Shown here: positions 24,832 to 63,997 of the stretch, piece after piece
Position numbering within the stretch: the first letter of the stretch is position 1
Layout: each line of letters begins with the position of its first letter
NCBI GenBank assembly: GCA_965248535.1
Contig: CBDFJR010000002.1
Location: forward strand, 2,080,001-2,144,000
DNA from: Phormidesmis sp.
Lineage (GTDB): Bacteria; Cyanobacteriota; Cyanobacteriia; Leptolyngbyales; Leptolyngbyaceae
Length of the DNA: 64,000 nt
Reading direction: 5' to 3'
The notes under the pieces: generated by a model
Seen by the model: the letters and a program-made list of their open reading frames with translations, nothing else
What the model was told of the DNA's origin: nothing
Database searches by the model: none
Translations under genes and position numbers: made by a program

Positions 24832-25116
24832 TCAGGCTTTGTCAGGCGCGACCCGATCTTTAAAAGATTTGCCCGCAGAAAAAGCAGGTACGCGAGTGGC
24901 AGGAATCTGCATCGTTTCACCCGTTTTGGGGTTGCGGCCTTCCCGCGCTTGACGATCTCTAACTTCAAATGAGCCAAACCCGACCAGAGTGACTTTATCG
25001 CCACTGGCAACCGCTTCTAAAATCGAGTCGATCGTAGCCGTCAAAATCGCGTCTGCTTCTTTTTTAGTCACAGATGCTTTGGCCGCGATCGCGTCAACGA
25101 GTTCACCTTTGTTCAT
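24832..25116 (-). CDS. hup: HU DNA-binding protein
   Basis: MNKGELVDAIA, GFGSF, GRNPKTG, PAFSAGK. Confidence 0.96.
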   Translation of the reverse strand: MNKGELVDAIAAKASVTKKEADAILTATIDSILEAVASGDKVTLVGFGSFEVRDRQAREGRNPKTGETMQIPATRVPAFSAGKSFKDRVAPDKA

Positions 25117-25278
25117 AAAATTTTCCTCTCAAGACAATCGCCGCCATTGTAGTGCAGGGTTTCAGACTGTGCAAGTGTACTAAACTATTAAAATTGCGAG
25201 TTTTGAGGGCGATCGCAGTCAAGATTGTCACCTCTAGCCCCAAAACCTGCGTTCCTCTCCTATAGATTGAGTCCCGAT

Positions 25279-25397
25279 TTGCTATCTACCAGCCTCCTCA
25301 CCCCGATCGCCCCTTGAGGCGACTAACCGTTATGGTTGTAGACGTTGAGAGCACAGGCTACCATCCGTCTGAGGGTCGAGTTATTGAGATGTCGGTC
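25279..25397 (+). pseudogene. Degraded 5' remnant of a DEDDh 3'-5' exonuclease gene
   Basis: From 25332 translates VVDVESTGYHPSEGRVIEMSV, resembling ExoI motif VVDVETTG..IIE; stops upstream and no continuation. Confidence 0.45.
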
Positions 25398-25546
25398 AAG
25401 CCATCCTTGGCAAGGGCATTGAACACCAGCAGACTGATCTGAATAAGTCTTTGTGTTTTGATTCCTAAAAATTTGTGCAATTTGCGGGCATTTCACAAAG
25501 CAGGGTGAATTGTCCAGCGCCCCAAATCAGACACGATCGCCTATTG

Positions 25547-25914
25547 GGGACTTGCGGATAAATAATCTCCCAGTCATTCTAGAAAGTAGGAAGCGTAGGT
25601 CAGCCGCCGCCCCTATCAATCTCTAGAATTGGAATGTACAGAACCATGTTAAGCGACTCCATTCAGTCTACTTTCAAAGATGCTGCTCAGAAACTGACTG
25701 GCAACCGCAAACGAGACTTCATGGCAAAAGTCACCCAAGACTACTTTGAGGGTTCAGCCCGTAAAGCAGAAACCGTTTTAGGCTGGTGTCGCCATAGTGT
25801 CCAACTGGGTTTGCATGAACAGCGCACCGGAATAGTCTGTGTGGACAACTATCAGGCAAGGGGACGACGCAAAAGCGAAGTGGGGTTGCCTAACTTAGAA
25901 GCGGATATTCGTTC
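25547..25914 (+). mobile_element. Truncated ISAzo13-family element (transposase N-terminus only; left end approximate)
   Basis: ORF from 25634 KDAAQKLTGNRKRDFMA...ARKAETVLGW...GRRKSE..PNLEADIRS stops at the IS5 end. Confidence 0.7.
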
Positions 25915-25954
25915 GGGCACCTCGATTAATTGATTTTTAGTGAATCAGGATCTC

Positions 25955-25994
25955 AAATGAGACTGAAGAGAGCTAAATGAGACTGAAGAGAGCT
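25955..25994 (+). repeat. Exact 20-bp tandem duplication inside the IS5 end
   Basis: AAATGAGACTGAAGAGAGCT x2. Confidence 0.9.
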
Positions 25995-26079
25995 ATGTAA
26001 GCCTATCGCTTCTCCCTCATTCACCTGAGCAATATTGATTCATCCAGGCTCCATTCAAGATCACTCCTGCTCCCACTTC

Positions 26080-27108
26080 TTAACCGACTGCTTTCGTTTC
26101 CAAGAAGGTGTACCGCAACAAGTTGTAGGTCAAGTTCTTCAATCCCAATTGTGCCGTTGCCCGCTGAATGCCAATCGAACGCAGCAGTTTGCCACCCATC
26201 TGCATCACCCAACACCCAAACACATGCTCGACTTTAACGCGCGTGGTGGACTTAGTGCGATTAGACTGCTTCTGTTCTTCCGTTAACGGGCGGTTGCGAT
26301 ATCCCCGCTCATGAATCTGACTATCGAACTGCATCAACTTCAACGTTTCCTCAATTGCTTCAGCGCGGTAAGCACTATCTGCCCAAATCTTGTCGCTCTC
26401 ATTGTCGTCATCGAGGAGTTGACCCAAAACTTGAGAATCATGAACCGAGGCATCGGTCACAGCATACTGACGAATCAACCCATGTTGGGCATCAATGCTG
26501 ATGTGATCTTTGTAGCCGAAGTAGCTCTTACCCCCCTTTTTCGTCCATCGAGCATCGCTATCTTTCTGAGAACGTTGATGCGGGTTGTCTTGCCACGATG
26601 GGGGAATCTCTCCTTGCTTAATCTGTTGATTCTCATCCTTGCTGTTGTGCTGCTTGGGAACGGGAATCAATGTAGCATCGACAATTTGTCCTCCTTGAGC
26701 TGCGTAGCCTTGCTGAATCAAATACTCATCGAATTGCTCAAACAATGGTTCAATTAATGCTTGCTCTGTTAACTGCTTACGGAACAACCATACCGTTGTT
26801 GCATCTGGAACCTCATCTGCTAACCCAAAATCGAGAAACTGCATGAAGGATAAGCGGTCACTCACTTGATACTCCAAGGCTTCATCACTAATGTTGTACA
26901 ACTGTTGCAACACCAGCAGCTTAAACATCACAATCACATCCATCGGCTTGCGTCCAGCATTACTCTTGCGCGGTTTGTCATGAATGGGTTCGAGCAAGGG
27001 GCGAAAAGTTTCCCAGGGGACAATCTCATTGAGTCGCACCAGTAAGTCTTGCTTCTGGTTCAGCTTATCTTGGCGCGTTTCCCAATCCCAAAATCCAGGC
27101 TGTGTCAT
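26080..27108 (-). CDS. IS5-family DDE transposase
   Basis: VPDATTVWLFR, IVDATLI, FGYKDH, ADSAY, RVKVEHVFG. Confidence 0.95.
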   Translation of the reverse strand: MTQPGFWDWETRQDKLNQKQDLLVRLNEIVPWETFRPLLEPIHDKPRKSNAGRKPMDVIVMFKLLVLQQLYNISDEALEYQVSDRLSFMQFLDFGLADEVPDATTVWLFRKQLTEQALIEPLFEQFDEYLIQQGYAAQGGQIVDATLIPVPKQHNSKDENQQIKQGEIPPSWQDNPHQRSQKDSDARWTKKGGKSYFGYKDHISIDAQHGLIRQYAVTDASVHDSQVLGQLLDDDNESDKIWADSAYRAEAIEETLKLMQFDSQIHERGYRNRPLTEEQKQSNRTKSTTRVKVEHVFGCWVMQMGGKLLRSIGIQRATAQLGLKNLTYNLLRYTFLETKAVG

Positions 27109-27267
27109 TGCAATTGCCCCATCACTGCTCTATAACTATGATCTCACACTTGTCTCACGTTAAGACTCCTCTTGGCAAATTTTTCGAGGTGCCCTAATGG
27201 CGGTGCCCAGGTGGAGTTCCAAGATATTGCTATTTCTAGCAATTAGCTGATCCACGTAAACAACACG

Positions 27268-27353
27268 GTCTAACAATCCCGTTGCACACCGACCGCTAAG
27301 TTAGTCGGTGAATCCGAGAGGTTGCTAGCGGCGGGTGAACGGGGTCGTTAGAC
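27268..27353 (+). other. Integron attC-like recombination site (solitary)
   Basis: GTCTAAC...GTTAGAC cores; arms CCCGTT[G]CAC[A]CCG[A]CCGC pair with GCGGCGGGTGAACGGG, leaving extrahelical bases; 86 bp. Confidence 0.8.
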
Positions 27354-27377
27354 CGCAAAGTTGTAAGTGAGGAAAAA

Positions 27378-27476
27378 ATGAGTACGCCGCAAGATGGTTG
27401 TAATTTTGGATGGTCTATAGCGATCGCTGTTGTTACTCTTGTGGGTGGTGTACTTGCCCTCGCCAACGCTTCGTGA
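27378..27476 (+). CDS. Putative 32-aa hydrophobic ORF or truncated cassette gene
   Basis: GAGG RBS then MSTPQDGCNFGWSIAIAVVTLVGGVLALANAS, starting 25 bp after the attC-like site. Confidence 0.35.
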   Translation: MSTPQDGCNFGWSIAIAVVTLVGGVLALANAS

Positions 27477-27533
27477 GGAGGGCAATTCATCCCTGCATTC
27501 AGCAACCCCGATTTTCTATGCAGGAGGTCTAAT

Positions 27534-59403: not shown

Positions 59404-60132
59404 ATGCGGGCCAAAAAGTCGCTCACGGTCACCCCAGAGATTCAGCAAAAATTGATTCAGATCCACGATCGGCTTTGTCAGGCTTACGGGTGTCCGATTC
59501 CCTACTTTCACGAGCTAGACCCTCTGAGTGAACTGGTTTCAGCGTTGCTGTCTCACCGCACTCGCAATGCCGATTCTGCCAACGCATTTCATGAACTGCG
59601 GCGACAGTTTCCCACTTGGGAGCTAGTGCGCGATGCTCCTGTTGCCGAAGTTGAACAGGCGATCGCTCGCTGCACTTGGGCAGAGCAAAAAGCTCCGCGC
59701 ATTCAACAGATTTTGAAACTGATCGGCGATCGTCGGGATGGAGATCTCTCGCTAGACTTTCTCAAAGACCTTTCTGTTGCAGATGCCAGAGCGTGGCTCG
59801 AATCGCTGTCGGGAGTCGGGCCTAAAACCAGTGCTGCGGTGCTGTCGTTTAGTGTGCTGCGTCGTCGCGCTTTGCCCGTTGACAGTCATCATCACCGAGT
59901 TGCAATTCGATTGGGGTTGATTGGTAGCACGATCGCGGTTGCCCCTGCCCACGCCATTTTAGAAGCTCAGTTGCCTCTAGACTGGACAGCCCAGCAAGTC
60001 TATGACAATCACGAAGTCTTAATGCTGCACGGTCAGCGCTGCTGCTATTACCAAAACCCTGCTTGTCAGCGCTGCCCGGTGCTTGACCTCTGCCCCTTTG
60101 GACAAGCTCGACACCCTCAGGGAGTTGCATGA
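59404..60132 (+). CDS. HhH-GPD / endonuclease III family DNA glycosylase
   Basis: LSGVGPKTS (HhH), PVDSH, C-terminal Fe-S motif CC...PACQRCPVLDLC. Confidence 0.88.
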   Translation: MRAKKSLTVTPEIQQKLIQIHDRLCQAYGCPIPYFHELDPLSELVSALLSHRTRNADSANAFHELRRQFPTWELVRDAPVAEVEQAIARCTWAEQKAPRIQQILKLIGDRRDGDLSLDFLKDLSVADARAWLESLSGVGPKTSAAVLSFSVLRRRALPVDSHHHRVAIRLGLIGSTIAVAPAHAILEAQLPLDWTAQQVYDNHEVLMLHGQRCCYYQNPACQRCPVLDLCPFGQARHPQGVA

Positions 60133-60195
60133 AAATGAAATCCCAATTTACAAGTTTTCGTCAGCTTTTGGAATTGAAGCGGGTACTTGATCGAT

Positions 60196-60388
60196 CCGTA
60201 ACTCCCTGAGCGCACAGAGCCTGAATTTCAAGCAGGATAATTTCCGAAATAGGGGAGTTATTCTGTGAAGATTCGGTGTAGAACCTAAAAAAAACAGGAG
60301 TTATCCGGTTTCCACACAGCATAATTTCCTTGTGGAGGGCATTTATCCTGTTTGTGAGGAGTTCAAACGGCAGAAATAGTAGTTATGC
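60196..60388 (+). other. Long imperfect hairpin ending in a GTTATGC core (atypical attC or attI-like site)
   Basis: CAAGCAGGATAA (60229) pairs with TTATCCTGTTTG (60343); GGGGAGTTATTCTGTG (60252) pairs with CACAGCATAATTTCCT (60315); core at 60382-60388. Confidence 0.45.
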
Positions 60389-60699
60389 CGCCAGCCCGAC
60401 AAGCAATCAGCCCGGTCTTTTAGAGTTGTCGTTCAACCGAATATCAACGGTATTGAGAACGGGTTGGTGAATGCGAAAGTCAACGGTTGAGACAGTGATC
60501 GCGCGGACTTATCGGTGTTGGCTTTAGCACAGATGTTTCGTTGAGATGGGGAAGTGACAGACCGCATAGGATTTCAATCCGTCCGCGAAGGCACAGTTCT
60601 TCGATTCTTGGCTATCCTAGCTTCGTCTTTTCACGTGACATTGGATAGGGCGAGAGTTGGGCTGGCGAAGTTGCGAGATCATTAGTTGAGTCAAGCAAC

Positions 60700-60787
60700 G
60701 CATAACAACCCGATTGGAGCGGACTGTTGCTCGATCTCAGTGAATTTGCAAAGATTACTCGCAGCCGCTCAATCGGGAACGTTATGC
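60700..60787 (+). other. attC-like site
   Basis: GCATAAC...GTTATGC; CCCGATTG[G]AGCGG[A]CTG pairs with CAGCCGCTCAATCGGG; 88 bp. Confidence 0.8.
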
Positions 60788-60995
60788 CGACCAAGTTGTC
60801 TGGGTGGGTGCAAGCGGAAGATTAATGGTAGGGTGCGATCGCTACGTATGAAGTTTTAGTGAAAGCCACGAATTCAGCTTCCTAGCTTTCTCCAAGCGAT
60901 AAGGCGGGTGTGCAGGGATCAAGCCAAATTCAGTTCTAAATTTCCTCGTCAAAAATGATGCTGACTATTGTTCGTAAAACTGCCCAGGTACTTGA

Positions 60996-61829
60996 ATGAA
61001 ACCAAATTCTGTATCTCAATCACAAAACTCAATCAAGCCTTTATGGTTCAATCGCAAGCGTGTTTTTCAAATAGGATTAATCCTCGGCTTATTTGCTGGA
61101 ACAGGTGTATCTGCGCTAGGAGGTTTTAGCTATTTGCAGCTAACTAAAGATTCTGTATCCATTAGGGATGGTCAGCTATATTTCAGCAAGTCTACCAGTA
61201 CTAATAACACTGTTGCCAGTAATGGTGGTGTTGCCAATAGTGGCAGCAACTCTCAAGTTAGTAGAGATAATTCGTCTAATAATACTAGTAATAGCCCAGA
61301 GATCCGAGGTAATTACAACACAATTACAATTGTGTCTAATCGAGATTTGCCAGGATTTAGCGAGAAAGGATATAGCACACCTCCTCCTGATTTAAGCAAG
61401 TATTCTCAAGCCAGTAATTTTCAACTTGATAAACTGGTATCTGGGTCTTCAGATACAGGTAGGATAGATTTTGGCAAGAAGGAAATTGTTATTTTAGGAA
61501 AACAGTATACTTCCTCCTTTGATGTTAGATATGACGCTAATTCAAGTCGCTTTGTCTTTCAACTGGATGGCACTCAAAAAGCGGCACTCATACAGTTTGG
61601 ACTTCCAGATTTAAAATCTGGAAACGGTAGTACTGGTGCCTACACAGTCAAGATTTACGGTGATGGCAAATTGTTATGGACAGGGGAATGCCAACGAAGC
61701 CGAGATAGTCAGATTATCTCAACCAGCTTATCAATCCCAGCTGTGAAATTATTGACGGTTGAGGTAACTAGCAATGGACAGAATGACAGTAATCTTTTCT
61801 TCACATCTGCACAACTTCTGAAGGAGTAA
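60996..61829 (+). CDS. AT-rich membrane-anchored protein with possible NPCBM/NEW2-like C-terminal domain
   Basis: TM segment, S/N-rich linker, FGLPD..TVKIYGDGKLLW...LTVEV. Confidence 0.7.
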   Translation: MKPNSVSQSQNSIKPLWFNRKRVFQIGLILGLFAGTGVSALGGFSYLQLTKDSVSIRDGQLYFSKSTSTNNTVASNGGVANSGSNSQVSRDNSSNNTSNSPEIRGNYNTITIVSNRDLPGFSEKGYSTPPPDLSKYSQASNFQLDKLVSGSSDTGRIDFGKKEIVILGKQYTSSFDVRYDANSSRFVFQLDGTQKAALIQFGLPDLKSGNGSTGAYTVKIYGDGKLLWTGECQRSRDSQIISTSLSIPAVKLLTVEVTSNGQNDSNLFFTSAQLLKE

Positions 61830-61997
61830 AGAGCGTTCTCTACAAGACTGACTACTTTGCTTCTACATATCTCTAGTAGCAAGACTCTAGTTTTGCAACT
61901 AAAAAACACATTTAGAGAGCAAAAATCAACAAATCTAAGCATCACTACAAAATCTTTCTTCCCAATCAGGCAACGACAATTTACCCGGATTAAACTC

Positions 61998-62333
61998 ATG
62001 ACTCAATTACCTGCGCCTAAAACGACAAAGTTCTGCCAAGAATGTGGAGAATCCATCAATGCCAAAGCCGAAATCTGCCCTAGTTGTGGTGTTAGACAGC
62101 CAGGGATGGAAGTAGAAAGAAAAGGCAAAAAAGATCGAATTACTGCCGCTTTGTTATCGTTTTTCGGAGGTACGTTTGGAATCCAGTATTTTTATCTAGG
62201 AAAAACTCTGGCAGGAATTTTGTGCCTGGTTTTTTGTTGGTTCTTCTTCTTCCCAACTTTCCTCGGTTTTCTTGAAGGAATCATTTTATTGCTCATGAGT
62301 GATGCAGCGTTCGATCGCAAGTACAACAAATAG
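61998..62333 (+). CDS. Zn-ribbon plus TM2-domain membrane protein
   Basis: KFCQECG..AEICPSCG; KDRITAALLSFFGG.FGIQYFYLG; ATG 61998 preferred. Confidence 0.88.
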   Translation: MTQLPAPKTTKFCQECGESINAKAEICPSCGVRQPGMEVERKGKKDRITAALLSFFGGTFGIQYFYLGKTLAGILCLVFCWFFFFPTFLGFLEGIILLLMSDAAFDRKYNK

Positions 62334-62387
62334 TGCGATCGCTGACGAGATTGTAGGGAATGATCGTGGTTGCTGCCTCTATGTGCG

Positions 62388-62476
62388 GTCTAACAACGCT
62401 CATGCACGCCGACCGCCGAGAGTTGATCGGTTATGATGCAAAGGTTGTCTACGGCGGGTGATGGGCAACGTTAGCA
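62388..62476 (+). other. attC-like site
   Basis: GTCTAAC...GTTAGCA; GCTCAT[G]CAC[G]CCG[A]CCG pairs with CGGCGGGTGATGGGC; 89 bp; same subfamily as 27268. Confidence 0.8.
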
Positions 62477-62780
62477 TTCCGTTTGCGAGTCGCCTTTAAA
62501 CAGAAAGAAAAAAGTAAAGAGAGATAATGGAGTCCGGTCAACAGTTAAAAGGGCATGAATAGTCAACTATTCAGACAGTTATGCCGTCACAGACTAGGTG
62601 ACAATTATAGCGGTTCTTCTTAACATGCAGTACACGTTGGACAGACAGAGCAAGGGTTTCAGCTTGTTATCTGTACCGAACCAGATTAGTAACCGCTATA
62701 AGCTTTCTAGAAGCTTGAAAAATCAGAAGATGATTGTAAACCAGAGCTTTGTCCAATCAAGTAGATTAGGAGACAGTTCA

Positions 62781-63146
62781 GTGGCAGAAAATATCAACAA
62801 TGACCTCAGAAACTCAAATATTGCTAACTTCGCAAATGAGGTTTCAGACAATGCGCGACTGCAAGCGAACCAATATATTAGTCAATCTGAGCGCCAGAGG
62901 ACTCTTATAGAAACAGCTAATGAGATTCAACAACTTCTTCGACAATTGGAGCAAACTAATCCCTTAGCGACAGAGCTTGAACAACGAGCTTATGTTAATA
63001 TTGCCACCAGTCCGGATCTTAAAGAACGCGCAATTGCTGCCTTAAAAGAAGGTGGAGAGACCGCTATTGAGGAGTTCTTTTTAGAGAATAAATACCTCAA
63101 AGTTGGTAAATCGGTTGTCAAAGGTTGGCTTCAAGCTAGCAATTAG
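62781..63146 (+). CDS. Hypothetical protein resembling the C-terminal helical domain of cyanobacterial pentapeptide-repeat/LRR proteins (start uncertain; frame open from 62598)
   Basis: AGGAG RBS before GTG 62781; TLIETANEIQQLLRQLEQTNP...ALKEGGETAIEEF..NKYLKV. Confidence 0.6.
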   Translation: MAENINNDLRNSNIANFANEVSDNARLQANQYISQSERQRTLIETANEIQQLLRQLEQTNPLATELEQRAYVNIATSPDLKERAIAALKEGGETAIEEFFLENKYLKVGKSVVKGWLQASN

Positions 63147-63243
63147 AGACTTCGGTGAGTTGCCAGCAGTTTGACAATCTGCTCTGAGGTAGACGAGTTC
63201 CTGGATTAAAATGCAGGGATACAGTTGCAACGAGGTTAAGGCA

Positions 63244-63519
63244 ATGACGGTTCGACAACCCCGCTATCCCAAAGAAGAATACGCTCGCCGTGGCAATGAG
63301 ATTTACGAGTCCCAAGTGCGATCCAAAGTCGAAGAGGGCAACCACGGCAGAATTGTGGCGATCGACATCGAAACCGGAGCCTTTGAAGTCGCTGACGACA
63401 TTGTGACCGCATCAGCACAACTCCTCGCCAAGTATGCGGATGCCCAAACTTGGTTTATCCGCATTGGGCATCGGGCGGTCTACCATTTTGGCGCACGGAG
63501 CCTGAAAGAAACGGTATGA
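63244..63519 (+). CDS. Small conserved hypothetical protein (DUF5678-like)
   Basis: RRGNEIYE..R..VE....GRIVAIDIETGAFEV; stop overlaps the next start (ATGA). Confidence 0.75.
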   Translation: MTVRQPRYPKEEYARRGNEIYESQVRSKVEEGNHGRIVAIDIETGAFEVADDIVTASAQLLAKYADAQTWFIRIGHRAVYHFGARSLKETV

Positions 63520-63893
63520 TGCATGGCTCTGTGAATCAGAACTGTGAGGCAATACTTCCAGTTGTAGTGAAGAACGATACTAAAACGCAACTCGTTGATG
63601 CAGTCATTGATACAGGTTTTTCGGGCTTCTTGACCTTGACTTCTAGCGCGATCGCCGCTCTAGACTTAACCTGGAAAGGGCGTGATGTTGCAACGCTGGG
63701 AGATGGCACGTCTTGTATTTTTGAGGTTTATATCGCGGTCGTCATTTGGGACGGACACTATCGCACGATTGATATCAATGAATCAGAAACAGTCCCTTTA
63801 GTCGGGATGCGCCTATTGCGAGGATACGATCTGCACATTCAGACCATTGAGGGCGGTTCGGTTACGATCAACGCATTGCCGATCGTGGTTTAG
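63516..63893 (+). CDS. Clan AA (retropepsin-like) aspartic protease
   Basis: AVIDTGFSGFLTL catalytic DTG, flap TLGDG, PLVGMRLL. Confidence 0.88.
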   Translation: MMHGSVNQNCEAILPVVVKNDTKTQLVDAVIDTGFSGFLTLTSSAIAALDLTWKGRDVATLGDGTSCIFEVYIAVVIWDGHYRTIDINESETVPLVGMRLLRGYDLHIQTIEGGSVTINALPIVV

Positions 63894-63912
63894 AAGCTAC
63901 TGGTGAGGCACG

Positions 63913-63997
63913 GTCTAACAACGCAGTGGAGTGGACAGTACAGAGTCTTCGCGCTTCGTTTAAGTTTGCTCGCCGCCGCTCACTTTAGCCATTAGCA
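63913..63997 (+). other. attC-like site with degenerate right core
   Basis: GTCTAAC 20 bp after the protease stop; AGTG[G]AGTGG pairs with CCGCTCACT; right core ATTAGCA; 85 bp. Confidence 0.65.

Follow-up and report, generated by a model that had tools for sequence, protein, structure and literature searches.

The attC site at positions 27266-27355 of the DNA analysed here is a used junction between two integron cassettes, both of which are now truncated (Table 1). The window, i.e. the whole 64,000-nucleotide stretch that was analysed, is C2:2080001-2144000 of a 5.03-Mb genome (G000) in five contigs, in which the octamer GCGATCGC, presumably the HIP1 sequence typical of cyanobacteria, is abundant. 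For one of its repeated proteins, the homologues that carry an organism name come from Phormidesmis. Integrons are gene-capture systems of bacteria, whose integrase IntI recognises the folded bottom strand of attC and exchanges it at G|TT; the bases to the left of this point therefore belong to the upstream cassette and those to the right to the next one. We are close to certain that the site is a true attC, and it is structurally intact and probably still recombinable, while carrying no whole gene.

Table 1. Features at the attC locus and at the array 33 kb away, in window coordinates.
Feature	Position	Strand	Remarks
HU gene	24832..25116	-	left chromosomal flank of attC locus; presumably HU, named from sequence
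RNase T-type exonuclease gene, frameshifted 5' fragment	25240..25543	+	start coordinate approximate; gene intact in congeners
ISAzo13-like element, left 370 bp	25544..25914	+	cut by IS5; 96.5% to C5:1245494-1245853
IS5-family element	25915..27194	-	transposase 26080-27108; NF033581 over cut-off
Upstream cassette 3' stump	27195..27265	+	putative open frame 27196-27246 (NGGAQVEFQDIAISSN*); coding inferred from position
attC site	27266..27355	+ (bottom strand folds)	R'' 27268-27274; crossover G27347/T27348 (G|TT)
Downstream cassette 5' stump	27348..27468	+	leader and codons 1-30 (from 27378); the gene is 151 aa in intact copies
Repeat-like short piece, 65 bp	27469..27533	.	takes place of remaining downstream cassette; abuts ABC stop codon
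ABC transporter gene	27534..29396	-	right chromosomal flank, converges on stump; PF00664, PF00005
attI-like repeat type B	60237..60395	+	heads array 33 kb off; crossover G60382/T60383; no integrase, no module adjoining
Three more attC sites, separate array	60700-60787, 62388-62476, 63913-63997	+	the three sites span 60700..63997

Results

Structure of the attC site and its family

All of the motifs quoted in an earlier, sequence-only reading of the window were found where it had placed them. The cores of the site conform to RYYYAAC/GTTRRRY (R'' GTCTAAC; R' GTTAGAC, 27347-27353), and folding of its bottom strand gives -27.3 kcal/mol (z -6.72, with 0/200 shuffles as good), compared with -26.7 kcal/mol for the top strand. 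In this predicted fold the R boxes are paired, three extrahelical bases (27284, 27288 and 27292, i.e. C, T and T on the bottom strand) stand four bases apart on the arm opposite AAC, the central spacer contains one C/A mismatch and the tip is variable. A covariance model that includes the site itself scored it at 71.2 bits. The claim that it belongs to the same family as the site at 62388 is supported, and the perfect complementarity claimed for its cores extends over 9 bp (CGGTCTAAC/GTTAGACCG). The outer arm had also been said to covary with that of the 62388 site: three arm pairs are indeed changed on both sides, but the 62388 arm is imperfect, as GCTCAT/ATGGGC leaves a C/A mismatch on the recombining bottom strand, the intact family form being GCCCAT/ATGGGC. 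Because this pair of the arm is disrupted on the bottom strand, the fold of the 62388 site does not surpass those of shuffled sequences (z -0.16).

The site is the only attC at its locus, with the nearest other attC 33 kb and the nearest intI ~975 kb away in the same genome; no other att site lies inside the 33 kb, so that its description as a solitary attC stands. A DNA search with 27195-27470 gave matches confined to the attC part. An iterated profile search of the genome found 55 places, 50 of them with E < 0.01, and a covariance model of 33 sites, applied to 150 of 1283 candidates, yielded 50 different places, among them three ends of an attI-type repeat. In the alignment of these 33 sites, which omits intron-split, weak and unfetched ones, 89.8% of cells were paired and there were 110 double changes vs 36.6 after shuffling (0/500 shuffles reached this number), and sliding the partners lowered pairing to 27-39%; the number of pairs with a double change was, on its own, not above shuffles (258/500).

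The inventory of the genome came to 50 attC sites at 26 loci (14 single, 12 multiple), and cassettes are thus scattered over chromosomal loci as the sequence-only reading had supposed. Its view that structure rather than sequence is conserved holds across subfamilies, but the subfamily of this site is conserved in sequence too (86-89% identity to three other copies in the genome, and matches in 115/401 genomes of the class, its own counted). Seven attC sites are split at R'' by one same sequence (L045:5920, L045:8863, L046:11020 and four more), and Rfam confirmed group II intron domains at three of the seven.

The array at 60-64 kb has features of its own. The attC sites at 62388 and 63913 are followed by homologous ~110-bp spacers (62470-62580; 63991 onward, L063:7991-8100), both of which begin TTAGCATTCC and hold another GTTATG core; they could be a duplication or another attI-like piece. 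The cassette starts after these two sites mismatch the next R''. One cassette of the array (63211-63893) contains a 102-aa gene and a clan AA aspartic-protease-like ORF (TIGR03698 below cut-off).

The downstream cassette

An ORF does start just downstream of the site, at 27378, as claimed. The first indication of a homologue of this ORF came from a loose end in a public run, and pattern scans found three loci (L155, L156 and L157) with ~80% identity over ~118 bp, starting at G|TT and continuing through the leader and the first 30 codons; as a 30-aa protein the ORF was found in 0/400 other genomes, and these three loci were reached only by the pattern scans. This homology places the start of the next cassette at the G|TT crossover of the site. 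The gene encodes 151 aa in L155 and L157 and contains an early stop in L156; its L157 copy forms the first cassette of a complete integron. The cassette start follows attI-like DNA in all three copies. The L155 and L156 cassettes end in an attC whose R'' (GCGGTCTAAC) is complementary to the cassette start, and TTAGACCG is therefore part of the downstream cassette; the next attC in L157 is not complementary to the start. The pair of 102-aa and aspartic-protease-like genes of the 60-64 kb array also follows the 151-aa gene in L155, and the start of the first of them follows it in L157.

In the window the downstream cassette is cut after codon 30, before its own attC, by the 65-bp repeat-like piece, which matches G006 at 90% over 41 bp and has one weak paralogue in its own genome. 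Run X1 has loose ends at both borders of this piece, and the rest of the 151-aa gene was not found in the genome.

Insertion sequences and the upstream stump

Left of the site the order is HU, exonuclease fragment, ISAzo13 (370 bp), IS5 and a 16-codon frame tail. The sequence-only reading had taken this tail for a reading frame cut by IS5. It does begin directly after the end of IS5 at 27194, but its coding is putative: it is all that remains upstream of the site, and no homologue of it was detected (0/300 other genomes of the class and 0 viral contigs). None of the contigs listed for runs X1-X3 bridges the junction between IS5 and the tail. These runs consist of contigs, and no circular or excised form was seen in them, which is not proof of its absence.

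The flanks of IS5 match neither each other nor the continuation of ISAzo13. Given how insertion sequences generally behave, this lack of a target duplication points to IS-mediated deletion or rearrangement. A second IS5 copy (C2:1675658-1676913), 98% identical, has a 4-bp target duplication, and recombination between the two copies is ruled out because the second keeps it. The ISAzo13-like fragment matches NF033519 only at E 0.007, with a full-length copy in G001, and no copy of the 3' part of the exonuclease gene was found in the genome. A segment of the left flank (25310-25543) is duplicated at C2:1671355-1671124 (~230 bp, 89% identity). There the left hairpin of a 700-bp repeated module (see below) comes ~23 bp on, array-forward and in the same direction as the stump; in the window ISAzo13 begins a few bases past the same point. 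The left-flank paralogue thus abuts a module, which suggests that a module-headed array was deleted here.

Two further observations concern the IS5 copies. The second copy (L046:13607-15557, C2:1675606-1677557) sits in the promoter-side end of a module, and its locus shares IS5, exonuclease fragment and cassettes with the window locus. The window copy contains a 20-bp tandem duplication (25955-25994), absent from the second copy and from the X2/X3 IS contigs, which is either copy-specific or an assembly slip.

The sequence-only reading had suggested looking for an empty HU-to-ABC-transporter locus in relatives. There is none, because HU and ABC are not neighbours in the congeners examined, in which the two blocks lie on different contigs or beside other genes.

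Modules and attI-like platforms in the genome

The genome encodes two intact integron integrases over the TIGR02249 cut-off and without stops (C2:161 kb and C2:1132 kb), each of which heads an array; an integron integrase gene is present in 24/41 genomes examined. The module is a genus-restricted 700-bp repeat with 17 copies in the genome (e.g. L054:2831-3610, L045:2863-3580), and consists of a leader with several conserved stems and free loops, a 123-aa orphan ORF and a terminal hairpin. A same-sense attC lies within 5.5 kb of 12/17 modules on one side and 0/17 on the other, vs 1.7% of random points, the 5.5-kb limit having been set after the distances were seen. Modules head 11/26 attC loci and 30/50 attC sites, and in G006 9/11 modules head arrays. 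One module copy has intI between module and attI; the second intI has no adjoining module.

The 123-aa ORF was found in 7/7 congeners and in 0/33 other genomes, immediately follows intI on five congener contigs, and is under purifying selection (pooled dN/dS 0.13 over 15 intact copies). The protein gave no Pfam or NCBIfam family and no Atlas match; its model is confident (pLDDT 86.8) but has no PDB or viral-library match (E > 0.04; best Z 4.4), from which neither a novel fold nor a function follows. For four loci Rfam gave group II intron matches only, and none for the module leader.

The attI-like repeat of type B has nine genome copies that diverge at G|TT. All of them are followed by an attC within 2.4 kb (9/9) and 8/9 are beside a module, counts obtained with a profile built from those same nine copies. 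The ninth is the window copy heading the 60-kb array, ahead of which tblastn found no intI remnant; a longer attI-like form (60119-60385) is also present in G002 and G007. The genomes G006, G002 and G000 differ at one orthologous module locus, which contains intI in the first, only attI-A in the second and only attI-B in the third. An attI present beside both integrases and in a third copy without integrase (L044:11069-11182, L045:4829-4942, L051:9637-9750) scores ~35 bits with the attC covariance model, i.e. weakly, as if it were attC-derived.

The sequence-only reading had ascribed the dispersal of cassettes to IS-driven fragmentation or to integration at secondary sites. Erosion by insertion sequences fits the present site (IS5 without target duplication, truncated neighbours), but the main cause, the repeated module that heads most arrays, had been missed; other routes of dispersal exist as well, because 15/26 loci are without a module. 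We propose tentatively, and with rather less than even confidence, that in this genus the integron may be a genome-wide network, in which the 700-bp module would distribute docking sites of the attI type as satellite platforms that lack an integrase, these would be served in trans by one or two IntI, intI and attI types would be swapped at a fixed module locus, and platforms would be hot spots of rearrangement that leave solitary attC sites behind when they decay. The 123-aa protein would then be a new accessory or mobility factor.

How the locus may have arisen

The history that we favour, and consider fairly probable as a whole, is that an array grew in place at a module-borne attI and lost its head to ISAzo13 and IS5. 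A small array would once have occupied the locus, extending to the right of the broken exonuclease gene; at its head would have stood one of the repeated platforms (700-bp module and attI), which had no integrase of its own and would have relied on the two chromosomal IntI acting in trans. ISAzo13 would have inserted, followed by IS5 into ISAzo13, and an IS5-mediated deletion would then have taken out the remaining ISAzo13 sequence together with the platform and the 5' portion of the upstream cassette. The downstream cassette would have been cut ahead of its own attC in a separate event. Against this history, no attI or module sequence is left at the window locus; its link to the module is one 230-bp paralogue (89%) that may have been copied in either direction, and the congeners are too diverged for base-exact ancestral junctions.

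The chief alternative is that two cassettes were integrated serially at an attG site without any attI platform, and were later trimmed by insertion sequences. Events of the attG type do occur in the genus. The solitary attC L062:10484-10571 (C5:2166483-2166570), of the same subfamily, is a natural insertion of this kind: homology with the empty G002 allele resumes exactly at the G of R' (GTCCGGTATAC vs GTTCGGTATAC) and R' coincides with GTT of that allele, the left junction not being base-exact. An 865-bp cassette insertion in G006 (L174:5840-6705) starts at G|AT of the empty G000 allele and has an untidy right end. Both, to judge from these alignments, would fit cassette insertion at genomic GWT (attG) sites, which has been described (10.1101/2022.09.11.507474, as far as the available part of that report goes). 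It also speaks for serial insertion that 14/26 loci hold a single attC. At C5:2166483, however, the DNA to the right of the crossover is chromosomal GWT target DNA, which is not the case at 27266-27355, where the right flank is a cassette start that follows attI-like DNA in all three intact copies, and where the left-flank paralogue abuts a module. Serial insertion is therefore rather unlikely. Integration at a secondary site, which the sequence-only reading had offered, is likewise not supported here because the right flank is a cassette start and not chromosomal DNA; the same cassette start rules out a lone cassette at a secondary site as the identity of the attC.

It is distinctly unlikely that the stump is the far end of a surviving array (either the one at 60-64 kb or the complete integron of C2:1.13 Mb), split off by a chromosomal rearrangement. 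In G007 the 3' end of the ABC gene is followed by an attI-like repeat of the 60119-60385 type, and in G002 by a compatibly oriented gene, the one that in G000 lies beside the module of the complete integron, both of which would suit such a split; however, ABC has four different 3' neighbours among six congeners, the repeat has three full copies in G007, and the integron-flanking gene is not beside ABC in the loci of G001, G003, G004 and G006. Nor does the genome contain the remainder of the 151-aa gene. Synteny breaks, found at 20/22 congener module loci and 9/10 module-free attC junctions vs 33/76 other (background) junctions, could favour a split, but this count is inflated because gaps are longer at module loci and ancestry is shared. 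A simple 33-kb inversion joining ABC to the 60-kb attI is unsupported, the G007 neighbours upstream of ABC being different. Three candidate empty-allele comparisons gave no base-exact module insertion point, the intergenic DNA being too diverged.

The perfect cores could also be taken to mean an unrecombined site, i.e. a cassette-circle junction or a newly made attC, a reading that would touch on the origin of cassettes. The 9-bp complementarity is the longest among the 47 delimited sites in the genome, and a relative's site of the same subfamily reaches 18 bp; but the downstream bases come from a different, known cassette whose own attC has the matching R'', and the 151-aa and 169-aa frame ends (L155, L156) are unlike the upstream tail. 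Furthermore, 2/37 other crossover halves would pair over at least 9 bp with R'' of the site, and at least one such match among 29 sites arose in 53% of permutations (P 0.53; these are 29 of the 47 delimited sites, 13 with doubtful borders and 5 intron-split having been dropped). In relatives 2/27 parsed sites (29 loci) reach a 9-bp core pairing. Because the DNA past G|TT belongs to a different cassette, and given the permutation result, we regard the match as chance and an unrecombined site as very improbable. Core complementarity in a linear array, even when perfect, is no evidence of a new or unrecombined attC. The 18-bp site (L137:1497-1600 in G070), whose perfect complementarity is in the outer part, has no tandem cassette copy in its 3-kb locus.

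An ordinary MITE or REP-type palindromic repeat would account for a dispersed imperfect palindrome in 50 copies but has virtually no chance of being correct, as it is refuted by the orientation and flank-repeat tests that the sequence-only reading had itself proposed: attC loci with several sites are one-stranded (12/12, p 6e-8), a co-oriented ORF ends upstream at 27/43 sites vs 11/43 when mirrored (p 0.0025; ORFs of at least 70 aa ending within 100 bp, 7 intron-split sites left out), target duplications are absent, and the two IntI head arrays of attC sites of this same family. Flank repeats average 3.0 nt, the same as at random places (3 nt at best for this site), and reach 5 nt at 2/50 sites vs 8.4% of random places.

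Discussion

Formally the site is a SALIN, being a single attC with no integrase or att site nearby, and with one attC its locus falls short of the at least two that define a CALIN. By origin it is probably a decayed CALIN, and it is an ordinary relic in an unusual system of dispersed platforms. Some surprise had been expressed at a solitary attC; this was overstated, as SALINs have already been described. The site resembles these in that its attC stands alone, without any further att site for 33 kb, and intI is ~975 kb off in the same genome. It differs in that known SALINs, in the part of the literature available to us, are mainly one cassette inserted at a genomic GWT (attG), whereas this attC has a cassette stump on either side, for which an eroded array is the better reading.

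Loss of intI, rearrangement and integration at secondary sites are known routes to CALINs, and Cyanobacteria have been named as integron carriers (Cury et al. 2016, PMC4889954, in its available text). As in the CALINs described there, the genome encodes IntI and has cassettes at a distance from intI; unlike them, only one attC survives at this locus, and many arrays of the genome have retained both an attI-like site and the shared 700-bp module, features that are absent from that description as far as its available text extends. The traits listed for attC sites, i.e. RYYYAAC/GTTRRRY, an unpaired central spacer, a variable terminal structure and extrahelical bases (Nivina et al. 2016, PMC5027507, available part), allow a similar comparison. 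The site shares with those of mobile integrons and the Vibrio VCRs the cores, spacer, tip and three extrahelical bases four apart opposite AAC, but its first extrahelical base is C and not the G given there, and its sequence is that of a cyanobacterial subfamily. Chromosomal attC sites of cyanobacteria are also known and have been modelled (Ghaly et al. 2021, PMC8352920); dispersal over the genome is outside that account in its available part. We found no description of repeated integrase-less attI platforms in cyanobacteria in the literature searched, a search whose scope did not extend to most subscription papers, and supplementary SALIN/CALIN tables may list this genome.

The attC at 27266-27355 is thus of a known kind, and the repeated integrase-less platform is the part worth pursuing. 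The value of the site is as a worked case of how integrase-less cassettes arise, in a genome that shows three sources of them: (i) array erosion (27266-27355), (ii) insertion at a secondary site with an empty allele (C5:2166483) and (iii) repeated attI platforms without integrase (11/26 loci). Should the platforms prove to be mobile and to be served in trans, they would provide an extra route beside those listed for CALINs, together with a testable orphan protein.
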